Shown in pieces: positions 1,743 to 34,921 of a stretch of 64,000 nt of DNA. Source of the stretch: Escherichia coli. GTDB lineage: Bacteria > Pseudomonadota > Gammaproteobacteria > Enterobacterales > Enterobacteriaceae. Positions within the stretch are counted from its first letter, which is position 1. Each line of letters opens with the position of its first letter. The notes beneath the pieces are model-generated. The model worked only from the letters and a program-made list of their open reading frames with translations, had not been told where the DNA came from and did not search any database. The stretch is from NCBI RefSeq assembly GCF_044324785.1, contig NZ_CP172127.1; one strand, given 5' to 3'. A program made the position numbers and the translations under genes.

Positions 1743-2077
1743 CTCTTAATCCAATATGTAGGGGGGAGGGAAATTGGGATAGCCTTATCTTATCGGATTA
1801 ATCTCAAAAATGTTAAATTTTGTGATAAAAAAATAACTTTCATCCTGAAATTACCTTCTGCCCTGGAGCCACCACATTTATCTGATGACTTAACTGCAAA
1901 ACGCATGATGTTGATGGCTCTCAGAGAAGGCTATAGCATTCTTTCATACGTAAAATCGCTACTCGTTTTTCAACCTGTGTGAGGTTTCTAGTTGCATAGG
2001 GAATCAACTGTTTTTAGGTAAACATCGTTTCCAGTAAATGGATATGCCGAAATTCAGAGGGTTCCAGTAACGACATT

Positions 2078-2945
2078 ATTGAAAGCAAACATACGACATT
2101 CATTTTGCTGATAACGCTGACGGATAGTGCTTCGCCACAATGTCATTCATCTTATCCACCAGATCCAGTCGCTTGAATGTGATGTGTCCACTGCCTTTCT
2201 GAAAGTAGCGAATAGTGAACAACTCATCTTCGAAAATCTGCTGATGCGGATTATCGCGCACAAAATCCATAAACCGGATGGAGACATCATGCCGGTTATC
2301 GGGAATGGTCTTCCCATCCAGCAGGTAGAACATCCGTTCCAGATCGGCAAGCTGATCTCGCCGCCAGCCCCAGTTCAGGCTGTAGCCCCATCTGTCATGC
2401 TTCACCAGATTGTTAACGATAATCTTCTTACCGAAATAACAGGGATTATTGGTTTTGTAGTCCCAGCTTAACCCTTTAAATACATTGATAATCCCACGTT
2501 CGAAAACATCCCGTTTATTGTGGTGGAGTTGTTCAAAGGTACTCAGGATGTTGGCTTCGCTAATAGCCGGGAGATCGCCCTCCTCCAGGTTCTTTGCCCA
2601 CTGACTGCGGGCTTCGGCATCCATCAGGGTCAACATCCCGGACTTCAGCATGAGATCGCGCCAGATACCGCGGTCGATATTTCGGGTGATCACCGGCATC
2701 GCTTTGTCGGTTGGCTGCATCAGCCAGCAATCAAAGGCATATCCATTCCGCATTGCCCAGGTTCCAGCCACATTACCGCCAATACTGGATGTCAGGCTGG
2801 AGATATCATCCAGTTTTTGGATTAACGTCGCTATCTGGTTCAGTGCACTATCACGACCCGTCACGATACGCTCAATACTGGTCGAGCAAATTAGCTCGTT
2901 ATGATCGGTTAAGACTTCAGCTTCTGTTTGCATAATCTTTCATCC
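2078..2945. repeat. Copy A of an ~865-bp direct repeat (second copy at 11018..11885, ~95% identical)
   Basis: Manual alignment of the two regions shows near-identity across the whole 277/285-aa ORF and ~20 bp of flank; weaker similarity continues to ~3050 versus ~11975. Confidence 0.85.
2100..2933 (-). CDS. Conserved island-associated hypothetical protein (277 aa), paralog of 11025..11858
   Basis: Complete ORF with ATG start; protein is ~96% identical to the second copy. No family can be assigned from sequence alone. Confidence 0.6.
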   Translation of the reverse strand: MQTEAEVLTDHNELICSTSIERIVTGRDSALNQIATLIQKLDDISSLTSSIGGNVAGTWAMRNGYAFDCWLMQPTDKAMPVITRNIDRGIWRDLMLKSGMLTLMDAEARSQWAKNLEEGDLPAISEANILSTFEQLHHNKRDVFERGIINVFKGLSWDYKTNNPCYFGKKIIVNNLVKHDRWGYSLNWGWRRDQLADLERMFYLLDGKTIPDNRHDVSIRFMDFVRDNPHQQIFEDELFTIRYFQKGSGHITFKRLDLVDKMNDIVAKHYPSALSAK

Positions 2946-3239
2946 GTAAAAAAATACACTCGCCGTTAGTAGCAAACGGATTATCCACTGGTGAAAGATT
3001 GGGTAAATAATGAGATTGAAAATTGGGAAGATGACTCGCAATAAATTATCTGGTCGCCTACGGATGGGCGATGGGCATATAAAGTAGCCTCCTGACGCAA
3101 GCGGTGAATGCTGAGTAAGATGCACTAACAATCTGGTACTGAATCCCCTCCTCACCGTCATACAAATCTGAAAAACCAAACAACTTCCGGTAAAATCCCG
3201 GCAAAAGCCGACGTTAAAAACACATTCAAAGGATAAAAA

Positions 3240-4792
3240 ATGACCAGTCTTCAGCAGCGCGCGGAGCTTCATCGCCAAATCTGGCAAATTGCTAACGATG
3301 TCAGAGGTTCGGTCGATGGATGGGACTTTAAGCAATACGTTCTGGGCGCGCTTTTCTACCGTTTTATCAGCGAAAATTTTTCCAGCTATATTGAAGCCGG
3401 TGATGACAGCATCTGTTATGCGAAACTGGATGACAGCGTAATTACTGATGACATTAAAGACGATGCCATCAAAACCAAAGGCTACTTCATCTACCCAAGT
3501 CAGCTTTTCTGCAACGTAGCTGCGAAAGCAAATACCAATGACAGACTGAATGCAGATTTAAACAGCATCTTCGTTGCTATCGAAAGTTCTGCTTACGGTT
3601 ACCCTTCAGAAGCTGACATCAAAGGTTTGTTTGCTGATTTCGATACCACCAGTAACCGCCTGGGTAACACCGTTAAGGATAAAAATGCCCGCCTGGCCGC
3701 GGTTCTGAAAGGGGTTGAAGGATTAAAACTTGGTGACTTCAACGAACATCAGATTGACCTGTTCGGCGATGCCTATGAGTTCCTGATTTCTAACTATGCG
3801 GCGAATGCTGGTAAGTCAGGCGGCGAGTTCTTTACACCGCAGCACGTCTCTAAGCTGATTGCACAACTGGCTATGCACGGGCAGACCCACGTTAACAAAA
3901 TCTACGACCCGGCAGCAGGTTCCGGTTCGCTGTTGTTGCAGGCTAAAAAACAGTTCGATGACCACATCATCGAAGAAGGCTTTTTCGGTCAGGAAATCAA
4001 CCATACGACCTATAACCTGGCGCGTATGAACATGTTTTTGCACAACATCAACTACGACAAGTTTGATATCAAGCTGGGCAATACGCTGACTGAGCCGCAC
4101 TTCAGAGATGAAAAACCGTTTGATGCCATCGTTTCTAACCCACCGTATTCGGTGAAATGGATTGGCAGCGATGATCCGACGCTGATTAACGATGAGCGTT
4201 TTGCCCCAGCTGGCGTCCTGGCCCCCAAATCAAAAGCTGACTTCGCGTTTGTATTACATGCGCTGAACTATCTTTCTGCCAAAGGTCGTGCTGCGATTGT
4301 CTGCTTCCCGGGCATTTTTTACCGTGGCGGCGCGGAGCAGAAAATCCGTCAGTATCTGGTTGACAATAACTATGTCGAAACCGTGATTTCACTCGCACCG
4401 AACCTGTTCTTTGGCACCACCATTGCCGTAAATATTCTGGTGCTGTCTAAACATAAAACGGATACCAAAGTTCAGTTTATTGACGCCAGCGAACTGTTCA
4501 AAAAAGAGACTAACAACAACATCCTGACCGATGCCCATATAGAAAAAATTATGCAGGTATTTGCCAGCAAGGAAGATGTTGCTCATCTGGCGAAATCTGT
4601 TGCGTTTGAGACTGTTGTCGCGAATGACTATAACCTGTCGGTGAGCAGCTATGTGGAAGCGAAAGATAACCGCGAAATTATCGATATCGGTGAGCTGAAT
4701 GCTGAGCTGAAAACCACGGTCAGCAAAATCGACCAGTTGCGCAAAGATATTGATGCGATTGTGGCTGAAATTGAAGGCTGCGAGGTGCAGAA

Positions 4793-6083: not shown

Positions 6084-9000
6084 ATGACTCATCAAACACA
6101 CACCATTGCTGAATCCAATAACTTTATCGTTCTTGATAAGTACATCAAAGCTGAGCAAACAGGCGACAGCTATCAGAGCGAATCGGACCTGGAACGTGAA
6201 CTGATTCAGGACCTGCGGAATCAGGGCTATGAATTTATATCCGTAAAATCACAGTCGGCGATGCTGGTCAATGTTCGACAACAGGTTCAGAACCTCAATG
6301 GTGTGGTGTTTAATGACAGCGAATGGCGACGTTTCACGGAGCAGTATCTGGACAACCCGAGCGATGGTATTCTGGATAAGACCCGTAAAATCCATATCGA
6401 CTATATTTGCGACTTTATTTTTGATGACGGGCGTCTTGAGAATATCTATCTGATAGATAAAAAGAATCTCATGCGCAACAAGGTGCAGATTATCCAGCAG
6501 TTTGAACAGGCAGGTTCTCACGCTAACCGTTATGACGTCACGATCCTGGTTAATGGCTTGCCGCTGGTGCAAATCGAACTGAAAAAGCGCGGCGTGGCGA
6601 TTCGTGAGGCTTTCAACCAGATACATCGTTACAGTAAAGAGAGTTTTAACAGCGAAAATTCTCTGTTTAAGTATCTGCAACTGTTTGTCATTTCTAACGG
6701 CACCGATACCCGTTACTTTGCCAACACCACAAAGCGTGATAAAAACAGTTTTGACTTCACAATGAACTGGGCGAAATCAGACAACACGCTGATTAAAGAC
6801 CTCAAAGATTTTACCGCTACCTTTTTCCAGAAACATACTCTGCTTAATGTTCTGGTGAACTACAGCGTGTTCGATATTAGCCAGACGCTACTGGTGATGC
6901 GACCGTACCAGATTGCCGCCACCGAACGAATCTTATGGAAAATCAACAGCTCCTATAAAGCGAAAAACTGGTCTAACCCCGAAAGTGGTGGCTTTATCTG
7001 GCACACTACCGGTTCTGGTAAAACACTGACCAGCTTTAAAGCCGCGCGTCTGGCAACAGAACTGGACTTTATTGATAAAGTCTTCTTCGTGGTCGACAGG
7101 AAAGATCTCGATTACCAGACCATGAAGGAATATCAGCGTTTTTCGCCAGATAGTGTTAATGGCTCGGAAAATACCGCAGGCCTTAAACGAAATCTGGATA
7201 AGGACGATAACAAAATTATCGTCACCACTATTCAGAAACTTAATAACCTGATGAAAGCAGAAAGCGACCTGCCTGTATACAATCAGCAAGTGGTGTTTAT
7301 ATTTGATGAATGCCACCGCAGCCAGTTTGGAGAAGCGCAGAAAAACCTGAAGAAGAAATTCAAACGCTATTATCAGTTTGGTTTTACCGGTACCCCTATT
7401 TTCCCGGAAAACGCTTTAGGTTCAGAAACGACCGCCAGCGTATTTGGTCGTGAATTGCATTCATATGTGATTACCGATGCGATTCGAGATGAAAAAGTGC
7501 TTAAATTCAAGGTGGACTATAACGATGTGCGGCCACAGTTTAAGTCTTTAGAGACAGAAACCGACGAGAAAAAACTGAGTGCGGCTGAAAATCAACTGGC
7601 GTTCCTTCATCCCATGCGTATTCAGGAAATCACGCAATATATCCTGAACAACTTCCGCCAGAAGACCCACCGTACTTACCCCGGCTCCAAAGGTTTTAAT
7701 GCCATGCTGGCAGTAAGCAGCGTGGATGCCGCGAAAGCCTATTACGCGACATTTAAACGGTTACAAGAAGAAGCCGCTAATAAATCTGCAACTTATAAAC
7801 CACTGCGTGTTGCAACAATCTTCTCCTTTGCCGCTAATGAAGAACAAAATGCCATTGGTGAAATTTTCGATGAAACTTTTGATACCAGCGCAATGGACAG
7901 CAGTGCTAAAGAGTTTCTTGACGCTGCAATTCGTGAGTATAACAGCTATTTTAAAACTAACTTCAGCACCGACAGTAACGGTTTTCAGAACTACTATCGT
8001 GATTTAGCCCAACGGGTTAAAAATCAGGATATCGATCTGTTAATTGTCGTGGGGATGTTTTTAACCGGCTTCGATGCTCCAACATTGAACACGCTATTCG
8101 TCGATAAAAACTTGCGTTTTCACGGTCTGATGCAGGCATTTTCCCGCACCAACCGCATTTATGACGCCACTAAAACCTTCGGTAACATTGTCACTTTTCG
8201 GGATCTGGAACGCTCAACCATTGATGCCATAACGCTGTTTGGTGATAAAAATACCAAAAATGTGGTGTTAGAAAAGAGTTATGCAGAGTATATGGAAGGT
8301 TTTACTGATGCTGCCACCGGTGAAGCCAAACGCGGCTTTATGGCAGTAGTTTCAGAACTGGAACAACGGTTCCCTGACCCTGCCAGTATTGAAAGTGAAA
8401 AAGAGAAGAAAGACTTCGTAAAACTGTTTGGTGAATACCTGCGTGCCGAGAACATTCTGCAAAACTATGATGAATTTGCCACGCTGAAAGCCCTGCAACA
8501 AATCGATCTTAGCGATCCTGTTGCGGTAGAAAAATTCAAAGAAGAACATTATGTGGATGATGAAAAGTTCGCTGAATTACAAACGATTCGTCTCCCTGCT
8601 GATCGCAAGATTCAGGATTACCGTTCAGCCTATAACGATATTCGTGACTGGCAGCGCCGTGAGAAAGAAGCTGACAAAAAAGAAAAATCAACCACCGACT
8701 GGGATGACGTGGTTTTTGAGGTCGATTTGCTGAAGTCTCAGGAAATAAACCTGGATTATATCCTTGGACTGATTTTCGAACACAACAGACAAAACAAAGG
8801 TAAGGGCGAAATGACCGAAGAGGTCAAACGCTTAATTCGTTCAAGCCTTGGGAACCGTGCCAAAGAAGGATTGGTGGTCGATTTTATTCAGCAAACGAAC
8901 CTGGATGATTTGCCGGATAAAGCCAGCATCATTGACGCGTTCTTTACCTTTGCTCAACGCGAACAGCAACGTGAAGCAGAAGCATTGATCAAAGAAGAAA

Positions 9001-9200
9001 ATCTCAATGAAGAGGCGGCGAAACGCTATATTCGCACGTCTTTAAAACGCGAATACGCCACCGAAAATGGCACGGAATTAAACGAGACATTGCCAAAACT
9101 CAGTCCGTTAAATCCGCAATATAAGACGAAAAAACAGACGGTTTTCCAGAAGATCGTCGCGTTTATTGAGAAGTTTAAAGGTGTAGGCGGGCAGATATAA
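6084..9200 (+). CDS. hsdR: Type I restriction enzyme endonuclease/translocase subunit HsdR (type IC-like)
   Basis: 1038 aa; superfamily-2 helicase motifs TGSGKT (Walker A) and DECHRSQ (DEAH box), N-terminal nuclease region; AAGGA ribosome-binding site; follows hsdMS as in type IC loci. Confidence 0.9.
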
Positions 9201-9244: not shown

Positions 9245-9619
9245 ACTGAGCTAATACAAATTAATATCGAACCGAAAATACCAACGCCTGTACCAACATT
9301 TTTCGTTTGCGATGGGTTGGAATTGGTTAGCCCTGAGAGAGTTAAAATAGCGAGAAAGATAGGTAACTAATGGATCACTGGTACAAAAAAAGCCGCTCTT
9401 GAGCGACTTGATTTGCATACGGTGTGGTGCGAAGGCCGGACCGCTCTTTCAAACATAATTCATTGAAATTAATGTGATTTATTAACCCAAAAATCATTTT
9501 GTATACTCACATGTATACTCAGCGCGATTCTCTGAGAAATCAACAACCTGAATAATCAGTCGGTACTTTAACGCTTCACAATGTTTATCGGAATTTCAAG
9601 TAAAGACAAATGCTGCATA

Positions 9620-10567
9620 TCAAGCATTCAGGATGGATAACGCTAAGCTCCTAAACCTGGAGTAAGCCTCATCCCATGTGATCTTTCGCTCTCCATACAC
9701 CATTGGCGAAACAAACTGCTGATAGCGCATCTGGTAGAGAGGATTGTTCGCCAGCTCATCCAGTCCCATTTTTAGCTCATCAACTGGAGACGCGCAAAAC
9801 TGCGGGTACTGGTTGCCGTAACGTTGAATGTCCTGCTCAATAGTTTGTTGAACAAAATCAACGAGCAGACTCATATCAACATGACTCGTCTCAACAATAC
9901 AGTTTGTATCGTAGATATGACGTACCAGCGATGCATCATCAAATCGCTCAACATCTCGCACAACTGCCGCAGTACGGCGTAACATCGCCACCAGCTTTTC
10001 AGCCTGTGTGCTAATGATAGTTGCGCATGGAAACGCTGAAACAATAGCCGCTTTTCCCGTGATCCCTGTTACCAGTGAATGAATATCCCGTAATTCAGAA
10101 GGCTCCAGTAACTTCGCTTCCATCAATTCCAGCCGGATAAAAGGACGCAAACAAGGTGCCTGCACCACTCGCTGTGGATAACGAACAGGTATGTCATTAT
10201 AACGATATTCATCCCGCGTCACTTTTGGGTAATCATCATCAAAATTGAACACACCCGATGAAGCTATTGCACTGGAAACTGCCTGAACAATTTCTTTACG
10301 GGTATTTTTTCGCTGAGTGCGGGAAAGTGCCTGAAATGCATCCTTAGGCACCAGTTTGATATCCACATCTTCCGACATGCGATTAAGTGCGACACCTGAT
10401 TTTGCCAGAGCGGTTCCTCCGGCAAACACCAATTGATGAGTATCGAACACCAGAGGTTTAAGCAATTGCAAAAGCTCAACGATATAGTGATCTTTTTCCA
10501 CAATTGCGACAGACTCAATACCAAGCGCGTCAGCCACTTCAGAAAAAAGAGTGGTTAAATCATCCAT
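9620..10567 (-). CDS. AbiEii/AbiGii-family nucleotidyltransferase toxin (type IV toxin-antitoxin / abortive infection)
   Basis: 315 aa; nucleotidyltransferase-fold motif LVFAGGTAL near the N-terminus; overlaps the upstream small wHTH gene by 8 bp, the typical AbiEi-AbiEii arrangement. Confidence 0.7.
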   Translation of the reverse strand: MDDLTTLFSEVADALGIESVAIVEKDHYIVELLQLLKPLVFDTHQLVFAGGTALAKSGVALNRMSEDVDIKLVPKDAFQALSRTQRKNTRKEIVQAVSSAIASSGVFNFDDDYPKVTRDEYRYNDIPVRYPQRVVQAPCLRPFIRLELMEAKLLEPSELRDIHSLVTGITGKAAIVSAFPCATIISTQAEKLVAMLRRTAAVVRDVERFDDASLVRHIYDTNCIVETSHVDMSLLVDFVQQTIEQDIQRYGNQYPQFCASPVDELKMGLDELANNPLYQMRYQQFVSPMVYGERKITWDEAYSRFRSLALSILNA

Positions 10568-10955
10568 TTAATCTGCTGTTCCCTACAGATAATACGCGTT
10601 TAAAACGCCGGGGGGTTTTTATCTCGGGTGAAGCTGGGATCTGCGTAGAAGTACCGCTATTGTATGCCTGCGTTGCGCCAGCAAAACGATAGCGTACTTT
10701 CAGGCGTTCCAGCGTTTCGACAATCACCGCTGAAGAGCCTCCGGGAGCCGCTGGCATTACCTTGCCTGTAATACCGTTCCGCCGTGCTTTGGTATACACG
10801 CCATAACCAACCTTCAACAGTTGCCCTTCCCTGACAAGATCGCGCAATACCCGACCAACCTGATCGTAGCCTGCAATATCTTTAAAGTCGTCACGAGTGA
10901 ATACGTAACGTTTAGAACGTTTCAGTCGTGACTGAATGCGTGCTTTTATCGTCAT
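10560..10955 (-). CDS. AbiEi-like antitoxin / winged-helix regulator (short form, ~131 aa)
   Basis: Start chosen at the ATG preceded by AGGAGG (MTIKARIQ...); the ORF-track start at 11024 abuts the upstream gene and lacks a ribosome-binding site. Basic N-terminus; translationally coupled to the toxin. Confidence 0.55.
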   Translation of the reverse strand: MTIKARIQSRLKRSKRYVFTRDDFKDIAGYDQVGRVLRDLVREGQLLKVGYGVYTKARRNGITGKVMPAAPGGSSAVIVETLERLKVRYRFAGATQAYNSGTSTQIPASPEIKTPRRFKRVLSVGNSRLNG

Positions 10956-11017
10956 ATTCGCCTCCTGAGTCATTGCATAAAGAGTAGCAAAAATACGACA
11001 TTTTAGATAGCAAACAT

Positions 11018-11885
11018 ACGACATTCATTTTGCTGATAACGCTGACGGAAAGTGCTTCGCCACGATATCATTCATCTTATCCACCAGATCCAGCCGCTTG
11101 AATGTGATATGCCCACTGCCCTTCTGAAAGTAGCGAATAGTGAACAACTCATCTTCGAAAATCTGCTGATGCGGATTATCGCGCACAAAATCCATAAACC
11201 GGATGGAGACATCATGCCGGTTATCGGGAATGGTCTTCCCATCCAGCAGGTAGAACATCCGTTCCAGATCGGCAAGCTGATCTCGCCGCCAGCCCCAGTT
11301 CAGGCTGTAGCCCCATCTGTCATGCTTCACCAGATTGTTAACGATAATCTTCTTACCGAAATAACAGGGATTATTGGTTTTGTAGTCCCAGCTCAATCCC
11401 TTAAATACATTGATAACCCCACGTTCGAAAACGTCCTGCTTATTGTGGTGGAGTTGTTCAAAGGTACTCAGGATGTTGGCTTCGCTAATCGCCGGGAGAT
11501 CGCCCTCCTCCAGGTTCTTTGCCCACTGACTGCGGGCTTCGGCATCCATCAGAGTCAACATCCCGGACTTCAGCATGAGATCGCGCCAGATGCTGCGATC
11601 GATATTGCGGGTGATCGCCGACATCGCTTTGTCGGTTGGTTGCATCAACCAGCAGTCAAAGGCATATCCATTACGCATTCCCCAGGTTCCAGCCACATCA
11701 CCGCCAATACTGGATGTCAGACTGGAGATATCATGAAGTTTTTGGATTAACGTCGCTATCTGGTTCAGTGCACTATCACGACCCGTCACGATACGTTCAA
11801 TGCTGGTCGAGCAAATTAGTTCGTTATGATCGGTTAAGACTTCAGCTTCTGTTTGCATAATCTTTTGTCCGTATAAAAGCAAATG
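11018..11885. repeat. Copy B of the ~865-bp direct repeat (see 2078..2945)
   Basis: Manual alignment, ~95% identity. Confidence 0.85.
11025..11858 (-). CDS. Conserved island-associated hypothetical protein (277 aa from MQTEAEV), paralog of 2100..2933
   Basis: Start set at the ATG corresponding to the start of copy A; the ORF track extends 8 codons further upstream. Confidence 0.6.
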   Translation of the reverse strand: MQTEAEVLTDHNELICSTSIERIVTGRDSALNQIATLIQKLHDISSLTSSIGGDVAGTWGMRNGYAFDCWLMQPTDKAMSAITRNIDRSIWRDLMLKSGMLTLMDAEARSQWAKNLEEGDLPAISEANILSTFEQLHHNKQDVFERGVINVFKGLSWDYKTNNPCYFGKKIIVNNLVKHDRWGYSLNWGWRRDQLADLERMFYLLDGKTIPDNRHDVSIRFMDFVRDNPHQQIFEDELFTIRYFQKGSGHITFKRLDLVDKMNDIVAKHFPSALSAK

Positions 11886-33172: not shown

Positions 33173-34441
33173 TCACTCGCCATTACCCCGATTGATCTTC
33201 GCATAGTCAAACGGCGTAATCGCTCTCTCCCGATTCGCATCCAGAAAATCGGCCCACCACTGCAACATCAGCTTGCGCTCATCCAGATGTTCCGCTTTAT
33301 GGATATACGCCGCTCGCACCGAATTGCGCTCCATATGACTCATCTGTCGTTCCACCGCATCCTTCGACCATAACCCGGACTCAATTAACGAGCTACAGGC
33401 CATTGTGCGGAAGCCGTGGCCGCAAACTTCAACCTTAGTGTCATAACCCATCACCCGTAGCGCACTGTTCACCGTGTTTTCACTCATGGGCTTACGCGGA
33501 TCGTGATCGCCAATAAAAATCAGCTCATGCTCACCACAGAACTGCTTTATCTGCTTCAGGATCGCCAGCGCCTGCTTTGAAAGCGGCACCAGATGCGGTG
33601 TGCGCATCTTTGTTCCTCGCTGAGAATGTTTCACGCCGGGAATCGGTTCTCGCTCAGGAGGGATGGTCCACATTGATGTTTCAAAATCGATCTCTGACCA
33701 ACGAGCAAAACGCAGCTCACTGGACCGAATAAAGATAAGCAGAGTGAGTTCTGTCGCCCAGCGGGTTAGCGGCCTGCCGGTATAGCCGTCTATTTTCTCA
33801 AGCAACTCAGGGATGCGCTTTAACTCCAGCGCCGGACGATGCTGTCGATTACTGGAAGCAACCGCCCCCGCCATCTCTTGCGCCGGATTGTAATCAATTA
33901 ACCCGCTTTGCACTGCATAACGCATGATGGCCGTGGTGCGCTGTTGAAGGCGGGAAGCCACTTCAAGGCGTCCGGATTTCTCCACGGCTTTAATAGGAAT
34001 TAACAGATCGCGGGTGCCTAGTTCAGCAATATTGCGAGTACCAATTGCCGGGAAGATATTGTCCTCCAGGCTCTTTTTTACACGATTAGCATGATCTTCC
34101 GACCATTTTTGGTTGGTTACGAACCACTCTCTGGCAACCTTCTCGAAAGTAATAATCTCTTTCGCCTGCTCTTCTTTCACAGCACGCTTATGCTCACGAG
34201 GATCGATACCAGCAGCTACCAGCTTTCTGGCCTCTTCCCTTTTCTTCCGCGCATCCGCCAGTGAAACATCCGGGTAAACGCCGAACGCCATCAAATGTTG
34301 TTTACCGCCAAAACGGAAACGAAATCGCCAATACTTTGAACCGCCAGGTTTTACAAGTAAGGACATGCCGTCGCCGTCAACAAGTGAATACTCTTTCTCC
34401 TCTGGTTTCGCAGAACGAACTTTAGTATCCGTTAGGGCCAT
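33173..34441 (-). CDS. intB: P4-family tyrosine integrase (IntB-like), adjacent to the tRNA-Leu 3' end
   Basis: 422 aa from MALTDTKVRSAKP...; catalytic-domain motifs of phage integrases (HGFRTMA..., HxxR region); followed by a hairpin plus U-tract terminator at ~33088..33131 on the minus strand. Confidence 0.9.
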   Translation of the reverse strand: MALTDTKVRSAKPEEKEYSLVDGDGMSLLVKPGGSKYWRFRFRFGGKQHLMAFGVYPDVSLADARKKREEARKLVAAGIDPREHKRAVKEEQAKEIITFEKVAREWFVTNQKWSEDHANRVKKSLEDNIFPAIGTRNIAELGTRDLLIPIKAVEKSGRLEVASRLQQRTTAIMRYAVQSGLIDYNPAQEMAGAVASSNRQHRPALELKRIPELLEKIDGYTGRPLTRWATELTLLIFIRSSELRFARWSEIDFETSMWTIPPEREPIPGVKHSQRGTKMRTPHLVPLSKQALAILKQIKQFCGEHELIFIGDHDPRKPMSENTVNSALRVMGYDTKVEVCGHGFRTMACSSLIESGLWSKDAVERQMSHMERNSVRAAYIHKAEHLDERKLMLQWWADFLDANRERAITPFDYAKINRGNGE

Positions 34442-34640
34442 AGTGGTCTTCCTTCCATTGGTATCTCGTGAGTATACAAGCAATATCGAATCGGCAAATA
34501 TACTCATTAGTATACTCACAAGCCTGTTGATGTGGGTTGAGTCAGGTTGACTTCAGTTGAGGAGAAAAGCTGGAAAAGCCTTGTGTAGCGCGGATTTCAG
34601 GCATAAAAAAAGACCTCAGTTGAGGTCTATTTACATACTT

Positions 34641-34725
34641 TTGGTGCCGAAGGCCGGACTCGAACCGGCACGTATTTCTACGGTTGATTTTGAATCAACT
34701 GCGTCTACCGATTTCGCCACTTCGG
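34641..34725 (-). tRNA. leuX: tRNA-Leu (anticodon CAA), leuX
   Basis: Reverse complement reads GCCGAAGTGGCGAAATCGGTAGACGCAGTTGATTCAAAATCAACCGTAGAAATACGTGCCGGTTCGAGTCCGGCCTTCGGCACCA, an 85-nt type II tRNA with CAA anticodon and CCA end. Confidence 0.97.
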
Positions 34726-34921
34726 CACTGAAGAGGTATGCGGAAAACGTTGTGGATTATACCTGTCGCACGCCACCATGCAAGCGCCAGCTTGCTCGCA
34801 CCTCGCTAAGTGCTGAAATTTTCAGCATTGCATACAGCGATGTGTAACCTTTGTCACACTCCAGGCACCCCGCCCTGCCATGCTCTACACTTCCCAGACA
34901 ACACCAGAGAAGGACCAAAAA

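Follow-up and report, generated by a model that had tools for sequence, protein, structure and literature searches.

Does the small open reading frame (ORF) that precedes an AbiEii-like nucleotidyltransferase gene in Escherichia coli contig NZ_CP172127.1 encode an unusually short, perhaps degenerate antitoxin, or does it belong to an ordinary and functional toxin–antitoxin module? The question was raised by an initial annotation of a 64,000 nt stretch of this contig (assembly GCF_044324785.1), the whole of which is referred to here as the window, in which the gene pair at positions 9620 to 10955 had been described as AbiE-like and possibly minimal or variant. Our analysis indicates, with considerable confidence, that the locus is an intact two-gene toxin–antitoxin and abortive-infection module of the AbiE family, that it belongs to the SanaTA subtype, and that it constitutes the last cargo pair of a CP4-like island integrated at leuX. 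The pair is thus an ordinary member of a subtype that is already known, being annotated, PADLOC-modelled and experimentally exemplified.

Both genes lie on the minus strand (Table 1). The upstream ORF, whose product begins with MTIKARIQ and whose ATG occupies positions 10953–10955, encodes 131 amino acids (aa), and its stop codon shares eight nucleotides with the start of the downstream ORF, which encodes 315 aa and carries the motif LVFAGGTAL at residues 46–54. The overlap of a nucleotidyltransferase bearing this motif with an upstream 131-aa ORF, as initially annotated, was therefore confirmed at the coordinates given. The same 8-nt overlap was also seen at the loci of a second E. coli variant, Pantoea, Acinetobacter and Picosynechococcus, and overlaps of 4–11 nt at other loci. 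The two genes form a same-strand bicistronic operon with the antitoxin gene in first position, which is the arrangement by which AbiE systems are recognized. A longer, 154-aa antitoxin starting at 11024 was ruled out by the position of the ribosome-binding site, by the RefSeq call of 131 aa, by the conserved length of 131 aa and because its additional part would run through the non-coding repeats described below.

The product of the downstream gene is clearly a DUF1814 (PF08843, COG2253) nucleotidyltransferase of the DNA polymerase beta type. It matched the Pfam AbiEii model PF08843 with 105.7 bits (cut-off 22.5, E 4.7e-30) and, over its full length, the PADLOC model PDLC02297 ‘AbiEii’ (E 8e-128), both far beyond chance, so that its description as an AbiE-like nucleotidyltransferase toxin held. 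When 32 toxin homologues were aligned (alignment A3), G50, G51, R63, M64, S65, E66, D69, K191, R197, R198, R216, H217, Y219 and D220 were found to be invariant, and D67 was kept in at least 90% of the sequences. G50 and G51 correspond to motif I and D67/D69 to motif II, K191/R198 probably represent motif III, R216-H217-I-Y219-D220 appears to be a variant of motif IV, and S65 is the predicted phospho-acceptor. The N-terminal numbering coincides with that of residues important in the Streptococcus agalactiae toxin (G49/G50, R63, T65, D67 and D69), and motifs III and IV were assigned to the S. agalactiae numbering putatively. Judged from its sequence, the toxin bears no sign of inactivation, as it is full length and all conserved catalytic residues are present.

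The motif IV of this clade reads R-H-x-Y-D (residues 216–220, window approximately 9908–9922), with an invariant His in place of the first Asp of +DxxD; it differs from the R-D-L-Y-D of MenT4, and the His is shared by the homologous toxin of Shewanella sp. ANA-3. No homologue of the toxin was detected among 50,697 phage records, and hence there was no evidence for a phage-borne module.

The 131-aa protein passed the cut-off of 25 bits of the Pfam model DUF6088 with 30.7 bits, aligning to positions 2–100 of 172, and that of AbiEi_4 (also 25) at the borderline, with 25.5 bits. It matched positions 1–128 of the 131-position PADLOC model PDLC02229 ‘AbiEi’ with an E-value of 3e-53, and was collinear with only the first 100–125 positions of longer AbiEi-type models (1–121 of 202 in PDLC02226, and 3–125 of 214 in another). 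The profile searches proposed in the initial annotation accordingly related the small ORF to AbiEi and its neighbour to AbiEii. The NCBIfam equivalog TAA_AbiEi was not reached by the 131-aa protein, whose score of 15.2 bits fell short of the cut-off of 150 and whose alignment covered positions 11–65 only, and a full COG5340-type C-terminal antitoxicity domain, as found in proteins of ∼175–205 aa in total, was not present, its place being taken by a shorter domain of ∼70 aa.

An AlphaFold2 model of the antitoxin, built from a 66-sequence alignment (pLDDT 94.9, pTM 0.85), comprised a winged helix-turn-helix at residues 1–60, in agreement with the winged-helix-like character first ascribed to this protein, followed by a small alpha/beta domain at residues 61–131. 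As modelled, the antitoxin is more than a bare winged helix, since residues 61–131 are predicted with confidence to form an additional domain. The most conserved element beyond the winged helix was the loop S103-T-Q105-I-P107, in which Q105 was invariant and P107 was present in at least 90% of the sequences, and R120 and G125 near the C-terminus were likewise conserved and modelled with high confidence. In Foldseek searches the top Protein Data Bank (PDB) match of the model was the S. agalactiae AbiEi structure 6Y8Q (probability 0.98, 113–120 aligned columns), with an E-value of only 0.03 and a TM-score of 0.40.

Many public records call the 131-aa protein ‘S-adenosylhomocysteine hydrolase’. 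This name was rejected and is regarded as a propagated misannotation, the protein matching the DUF6088 and AbiEi models and a winged-helix model instead. RefSeq designates the pair ‘DUF6088 family protein’ and ‘nucleotidyl transferase AbiEii/AbiGii toxin family protein’ and annotates it in 160 of the 5426 complete E. coli genomes, including that of E. coli W; for the first of these products, SanaA-type AbiEi antitoxin would now be a suitable name.

A tblastn search of plasmids revealed a homologous pair on the megaplasmid of Shewanella sp. ANA-3 (NC_008573.1, 21935–23283), consisting of a 136-aa DUF6088 protein whose gene overlaps that of a 313-aa AbiEii protein by 4 nt. The antitoxins are 45% identical in a 124-aa alignment containing one gap, the toxins share 44% identity over 313 aa, and both alignments are collinear from end to end. 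The best PADLOC models of the ANA-3 proteins are those of the window pair, PDLC02229 for the antitoxin and PDLC02297 for the toxin, and the ANA-3 toxin contains S65 within RMSEDVD. SanaA of Shewanella sp. ANA-3 is a 136-aa protein described as ‘substantially’ smaller than other AbiEi homologues (Arrowsmith et al., 10.64898/2026.01.19.700257); the helices and sheets present at the C-terminus of longer AbiEi proteins are missing from it, while the conserved loop is retained, and S65 of SanaT is the equivalent of the AbiEii phospho-acceptor T65 (10.64898/2026.01.19.700257). Because organism, antitoxin length and toxin S65 agree, the ANA-3 plasmid pair is very probably the published SanaTA. According to papers citing the original work of Sberro et al. 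(2013), SanaTA is a functional toxin–antitoxin pair that protects E. coli from phage T7 lacking gene 4.5 (PMC3985639; PMC8230891; 10.64898/2026.01.19.700257), and SanaA is proposed to be degraded by Lon (PMC8230891). By analogy, Lon-dependent activation and protection from T7 lacking gene 4.5 may be expected of the E. coli pair.

The E. coli pair resembles SanaTA in having the same order of overlapping genes, a short antitoxin (131 versus 136 aa), a toxin of similar length (315 versus 313 aa) with R63-M-S65-E-D-V-D69 and RHIYD motifs, and a paired TG(T/C)CGTAT repeat with 23-nt spacing upstream. It differs in its carrier, which is a chromosomal leuX island in E. coli and, in ANA-3, a conjugative megaplasmid where the pair stands beside a type I restriction–modification system; moreover, the proteins are ∼55% divergent, and the E. 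coli pair is characterized by sequence and model only.

The antitoxin is indeed shorter than canonical two-domain AbiEi proteins, with 131 aa against 195 aa in S. agalactiae and partial cover of the longer profiles, and to this extent the initial annotation was right. The further suggestion that it is unusual or a minimal variant was not borne out. Among the 120 nearest clusters at the 90%-identity level, 101 had a length of precisely 131 aa, down to 69% identity, the genera represented being Escherichia, Salmonella, Klebsiella, Pantoea, Dickeya, Pectobacterium, Photorhabdus, Xenorhabdus, Yersinia and Serratia. When 50%-identity representatives were searched exhaustively, 732 antitoxin clusters had E ≤ 1e-3 and 259 reached E ≤ 1e-10; of the 150 top-ranking representatives, 80 measured 125–160 aa, 43 were shorter than 125 aa, many of which look like contig fragments, and 27 reached at least 160 aa, most of these carrying an N- or C-terminal extension. 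Given a stable length in a large family, a curated PADLOC model of 131 positions for the short form and a short SanaA that has already been studied, the shortness is neither unusual nor the result of truncation. The label ‘type IV’ attached to the module is affected by current nomenclature, AbiE now being reclassified as type VII in a preprint (10.64898/2026.01.19.700257).

The pair was also compared with the AbiE systems of S. agalactiae and Lactococcus lactis and with the MenAT systems of Mycobacterium tuberculosis. With AbiE it shares a DUF1814 toxin with motifs I–IV and a phospho-acceptor at residue 65, an antitoxin whose best match among solved structures is AbiEi itself, and repeats in the presumed promoter region. 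It differs in the absence of the distal part of the C-terminal domain of the 195-aa antitoxin, in its direct repeats with a 23-nt period as opposed to the two 23-bp inverted repeats 3 bp apart of AbiE, and in RHxYD in place of +DxxD as motif IV. In AbiE, neutralization of the toxin falls to the C-terminal domain of AbiEi and autoregulation to its winged helix (PMC3985639), elements of the C-terminal part (E150–E155 and Q162) touch the toxin, and AbiEi induces auto-phosphorylation of AbiEii on T65 (10.64898/2026.01.19.700257).

With MenA3–MenT3 and MenA4–MenT4 (PMC7450476; PMC7205606; PMC11375011) the likeness lies in the toxin fold (target-normalized TM-score 0.62–0.69), in a Ser/Thr phospho-acceptor beside motif II and in a winged-helix antitoxin encoded upstream, whereas sequence identity is only 13–23%, MenA3 and MenA4 are full-length COG5340 antitoxins, and MenT4 is not regulated by phosphorylation. 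The resemblance in fold was evident in Foldseek searches with the toxin part of a fused antitoxin–toxin model (see below), which matched MenT4 (6Y56) with an E-value of 1.8e-7 at 23% identity and MenT3/TglT (6Y5U) with an E-value of 1.4e-6. MenT3 and AbiEii add nucleotides to tRNA 3′ ends and thereby block translation (PMC7450476 for MenT3). Identity with one of the three AbiE systems of Serratia sp. ATCC 39006, functional by transposon sequencing (PMC7725324), was considered and dismissed, as the sequences of AbiE-A1 to A3 differ from that of the window pair.

The region 30–70 nt before the antitoxin start codon contains two 18-nt direct repeats, AATGTCGTAT(G/T)TTTGCTA, which follow each other with a spacing of 23 nt. 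Their 16-nt core occurred three times in the 64-kb window against an expectation of 0.14. The same motif, again with a 23-nt period, was found upstream of the homologous pairs of Pantoea, an Acinetobacter plasmid, an Aeromonas plasmid and the ANA-3 plasmid (TGCCGTAT in ANA-3), and with a 24-nt period upstream of a Sinorhizobium pair, while single copies were present at the second E. coli variant, Vibrio and Picosynechococcus loci. The plasmid of Aeromonas veronii (locus L015) carries, besides its two direct repeats, a third and inverted copy of the motif, CAAAAATACGACAT, ∼100 nt 5′ of the antitoxin start.

As this DNA motif travels with the winged-helix protein across distant lineages, the repeats are predicted to be the operator of the antitoxin, and direct repeats conforming to TGTCGTAT-N3-TTGC with 23-nt spacing may be proposed as the candidate operator for the SanaA-type antitoxin family. 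The autoregulation predicted here parallels that of AbiEi, of which one monomer binds each repeat (PMC3985639), with the difference that the repeats are direct and not inverted.

A single-chain model in which antitoxin and toxin were fused by a linker, computed with AlphaFold from 10 paired and 92 unpaired alignment rows, reached a pLDDT of 92 and a pTM of 0.90, with low confidence in the linker only; from this whole-chain pTM the interface appears to be confidently placed. The value is similar to the pTM of 0.88 of the SanaA:SanaT model in the preprint (10.64898/2026.01.19.700257).

Taken together with the known systems, these data suggest the following mode of action. Free toxin would add nucleotides to the acceptor ends of tRNAs, and translation and growth would stop. 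The antitoxin would bind across the active site of the toxin and probably trigger its auto-phosphorylation on Ser65, leaving it inactive, and would at the same time repress its own operon, with monomers occupying the two direct repeats just upstream. If the cell is infected by a phage or loses the island, the antitoxin level would drop, in a Lon-dependent manner as in SanaTA, and the freed toxin would then abort the infection or kill cells that have lost the island.

Whether such an antitoxin acts by phosphorylation or by simple sequestration is the main uncertainty, owing to the exception that MenT4 makes among such pairs. It is conceivable, if rather doubtful, that the system is type II-like, the antitoxin neutralizing by stable binding and occlusion of the active site without phosphorylation of the toxin, with release through Lon proteolysis. 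The proposal of a Lon-labile SanaA made in PMC8230891, the tight complex predicted by the fused model, the failure of the COG5340 antitoxin of MenT4 to phosphorylate its toxin, and the absence from the short antitoxin of the AbiEi toxin-contact elements all speak for such a mechanism. Set against them are Ser65, which occupies the phospho-acceptor position in 32 of 32 aligned toxins, the SanaA:SanaT model of the preprint, which puts the antitoxin loop beside S65 (10.64898/2026.01.19.700257), and the finding in S. agalactiae that complex formation alone does not neutralize the toxin in vivo. Ser65 offers a concrete site that bears on auto-phosphorylation in short-antitoxin AbiE systems.

A bolder proposal, to which we assign a low likelihood, is that SanaA-type short antitoxins, after losing the distal C-terminal domain, form a mechanistically distinct branch of AbiE that acts by Lon-labile steric occlusion via the STQIP loop and not by auto-phosphorylation, that possesses its own type of operator (two direct repeats with a 23-nt period from enterobacteria to rhizobia, and single copies at the cyanobacterial and Vibrio loci), and that possibly cooperates with the adjacent DUF4942 gene in enterobacterial islands.

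Two further readings deny that the module works as such, and both appear far less probable. If the short antitoxin were a truncated, decaying remnant of AbiEi, the module would be degenerate and the toxin inactive or otherwise controlled. The antitoxin does cover only the first ∼60% of the longer AbiEi-type profiles, and decay of such modules occurs nearby, as seen in a deleted copy at 1948–2099 and in an orphan antitoxin of Serratia ATCC 39006 (both described below). Nevertheless, the exact length of 131 aa across so many genera, the matching 131-position model, the conserved and confidently modelled R120 and G125, and a full-length toxin with every invariant residue in place all contradict truncation, as does the 136-aa SanaA, which the literature describes as functional (10.64898/2026.01.19.700257); judged by sequence conservation, a truncated antitoxin can be considered largely refuted already, and we hold it to be extremely improbable. 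Scarcely more credible is that the small protein does no more than regulate transcription, either of the island or of the neighbouring DUF4942 gene, next to a non-toxic nucleotidyltransferase with a housekeeping or modification role. This would fit the dominance of the winged helix among the structural matches, the toxin-less orphan in Serratia and the position of the gene behind DUF4942 in several enterobacterial islands, and is opposed by the tight, translationally coupled pairing with AbiEii across phyla, also where DUF4942 is absent, by the confident predicted complex, and by the homologues SanaTA, AbiE and MenAT, whose toxins have experimentally been found toxic and neutralized by their partners.

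Several points weigh against the interpretation of the locus as a functional SanaTA-type module. At the sequence level the link of the antitoxin to canonical AbiEi is weak: AbiEi_4 was passed by 0.5 bit only, TAA_AbiEi was missed with 15 against 150 bits, and searches for the antitoxin gave no sequence-level PDB match and no significant sequence match to AbiEi itself. The ANA-3 locus is equated with SanaTA by organism, length and S65, not by accession. The STQIP loop is a candidate for the element that reaches S65 and the active site of the toxin. Phosphorylation is not universal in COG2253–COG5340 pairs, as MenA4 does not phosphorylate MenT4, and S. agalactiae AbiE gave E. coli no protection against 32 coliphages (10.64898/2026.01.19.700257). 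A consensus scan of the coding strand returned no sigma-70 promoter, and inspection by hand no convincing −35/−10 pair. Toxicity, neutralization, phosphorylation, tRNA modification, DNA binding and phage defence are all ascribed to the E. coli pair by analogy.

In the window the pair is flanked by the type I hsdR gene (6084..9200) on one side and by the DUF4942, cbtA, cbeA and radC genes on the other. A tRNA-Leu(caa) gene, leuX, was located at 34642–34726 with a P4-type integrase gene adjacent to it (∼33191–34656), and between hsdR and the toxin gene the 3′ end of leuX is repeated in degenerate form (Table 1). In E. coli 1303, which does not carry the island, hsdR is followed by leuX after 225 nt, and this empty site matches position 9424–9441. 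In E. coli W this island end is also present, with 97% identity starting at 9385, beside a different neighbour. As deduced from these sequences, the pair is the distal terminal cargo of a leuX CP4-like island of ∼25 kb. The initial annotation was hence correct as to the position of the pair between the type I operon and the CP4-like genes, while the insertion it suggested there did not stand, the pair being terminal cargo of the leuX island itself. The locus supplies a further intact module for defence or addiction, situated at the tip of a leuX island beside type I restriction, and fits the clustering of defence genes on mobile islands; beyond annotation its significance is small, the repeat motif and the decayed copy being minor additions.

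Table 1. Coordinates of the SanaTA-like gene pair and associated features (window positions unless a locus is named).
Feature	Position	Strand	Evidence
Toxin gene, AbiEii/DUF1814 (SanaT-like) nucleotidyltransferase, 315 aa	9620..10567	-	Pfam PF08843, PADLOC PDLC02297, ANA-3 homology, alignment A3, Foldseek
Antitoxin gene, short AbiEi-type (SanaA-like, DUF6088), 131 aa	10560..10955	-	
8-nt overlap ATGGATGA, antitoxin stop/toxin start, translational coupling	10560..10567	-	Sequence
Shine-Dalgarno AGGAGG, 5 nt 5′ of antitoxin ATG	10961..10966	-	Sequence; conserved in upstream-region alignment
Proximal operator-like direct repeat AATGTCGTATTTTTGCTA, candidate antitoxin site (putative)	10985..11002	-	Repeat search, motif count, conservation
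Distal operator-like direct repeat AATGTCGTATGTTTGCTA, 23 nt 5′ of proximal copy, abuts DUF4942 stop codon	11008..11025	-	Repeat search, motif count, conservation
Degenerate leuX 3′-end copy TGGTGCGAAGGCCGGAC, distal island boundary, pair ∼180 nt inside	9424..9441	.	Shared 12-mer and surrounding match
DUF4942 genes upstream of SanaA-like genes or their decayed copy	11025-11882, 2100-2933; L001 10525-11358; L002 (Serratia) 2494-3327		

The architecture of the module was kept in seven of eight plasmid loci, from Gamma-, Alpha- and Betaproteobacteria and Cyanobacteria, and was shared by the second E. coli variant and Pantoea. The contexts in Pantoea and on the plasmids are unrelated and often rich in defence genes, such as a DNA methylase with an SNF2 helicase, a UvrD-type helicase or hsdM. 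The recurrence of the same two genes in unrelated contexts shows that they move as a unit. On the Shewanella ANA-3 plasmid (L005, from 4339 on) and on pVT1 of Vibrio tapetis (L016, from 3357 on), a type I hsdM gene follows within 8 nt of the pair; the window pair also stands beside a type I system, here through insertion of the island.

A DUF4942 gene directly upstream of a SanaA-like gene recurs in enterobacterial CP4-like islands, with the distal repeat directly adjoining its stop codon. This adjacency probably reflects linkage rather than a third component, since the pair lacks DUF4942 in Pantoea and on the plasmids. A 131-aa orphan with 76% identity to the antitoxin was found in Serratia sp. 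ATCC 39006/Prodigiosinella confusarubida (CP025084.1; fetched locus L002, 4001–4396), where a DUF4942 gene is followed by a ribbon-helix-helix (RHH) antitoxin gene, a ParE toxin gene, the orphan and, in the place of an AbiEii toxin gene, a gene for an HTH_3 protein. The orphan may be a lone repressor or an anti-addiction remnant.

Finally, a decayed second copy of the module was detected in the window at 1948–2099 on the minus strand, just 3′ of the DUF4942 gene at 2100–2933. It starts with an exact distal repeat, ATGTCGTATGTTTGCT (2084–2099), continues with the first 8 nt of the proximal repeat and is there fused to a toxin fragment (2070..1948) that matches toxin residues 153–197 with 56% identity (E 4.6e-5). 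It seems that an internal deletion removed the antitoxin gene and the 5′ half of the toxin gene from this copy. Over the DUF4942 gene at 2100–2933 and the ∼30 nt that follow it, the distal repeat among them, the sequence shares 95% identity with the DUF4942 end of the island in E. coli W.

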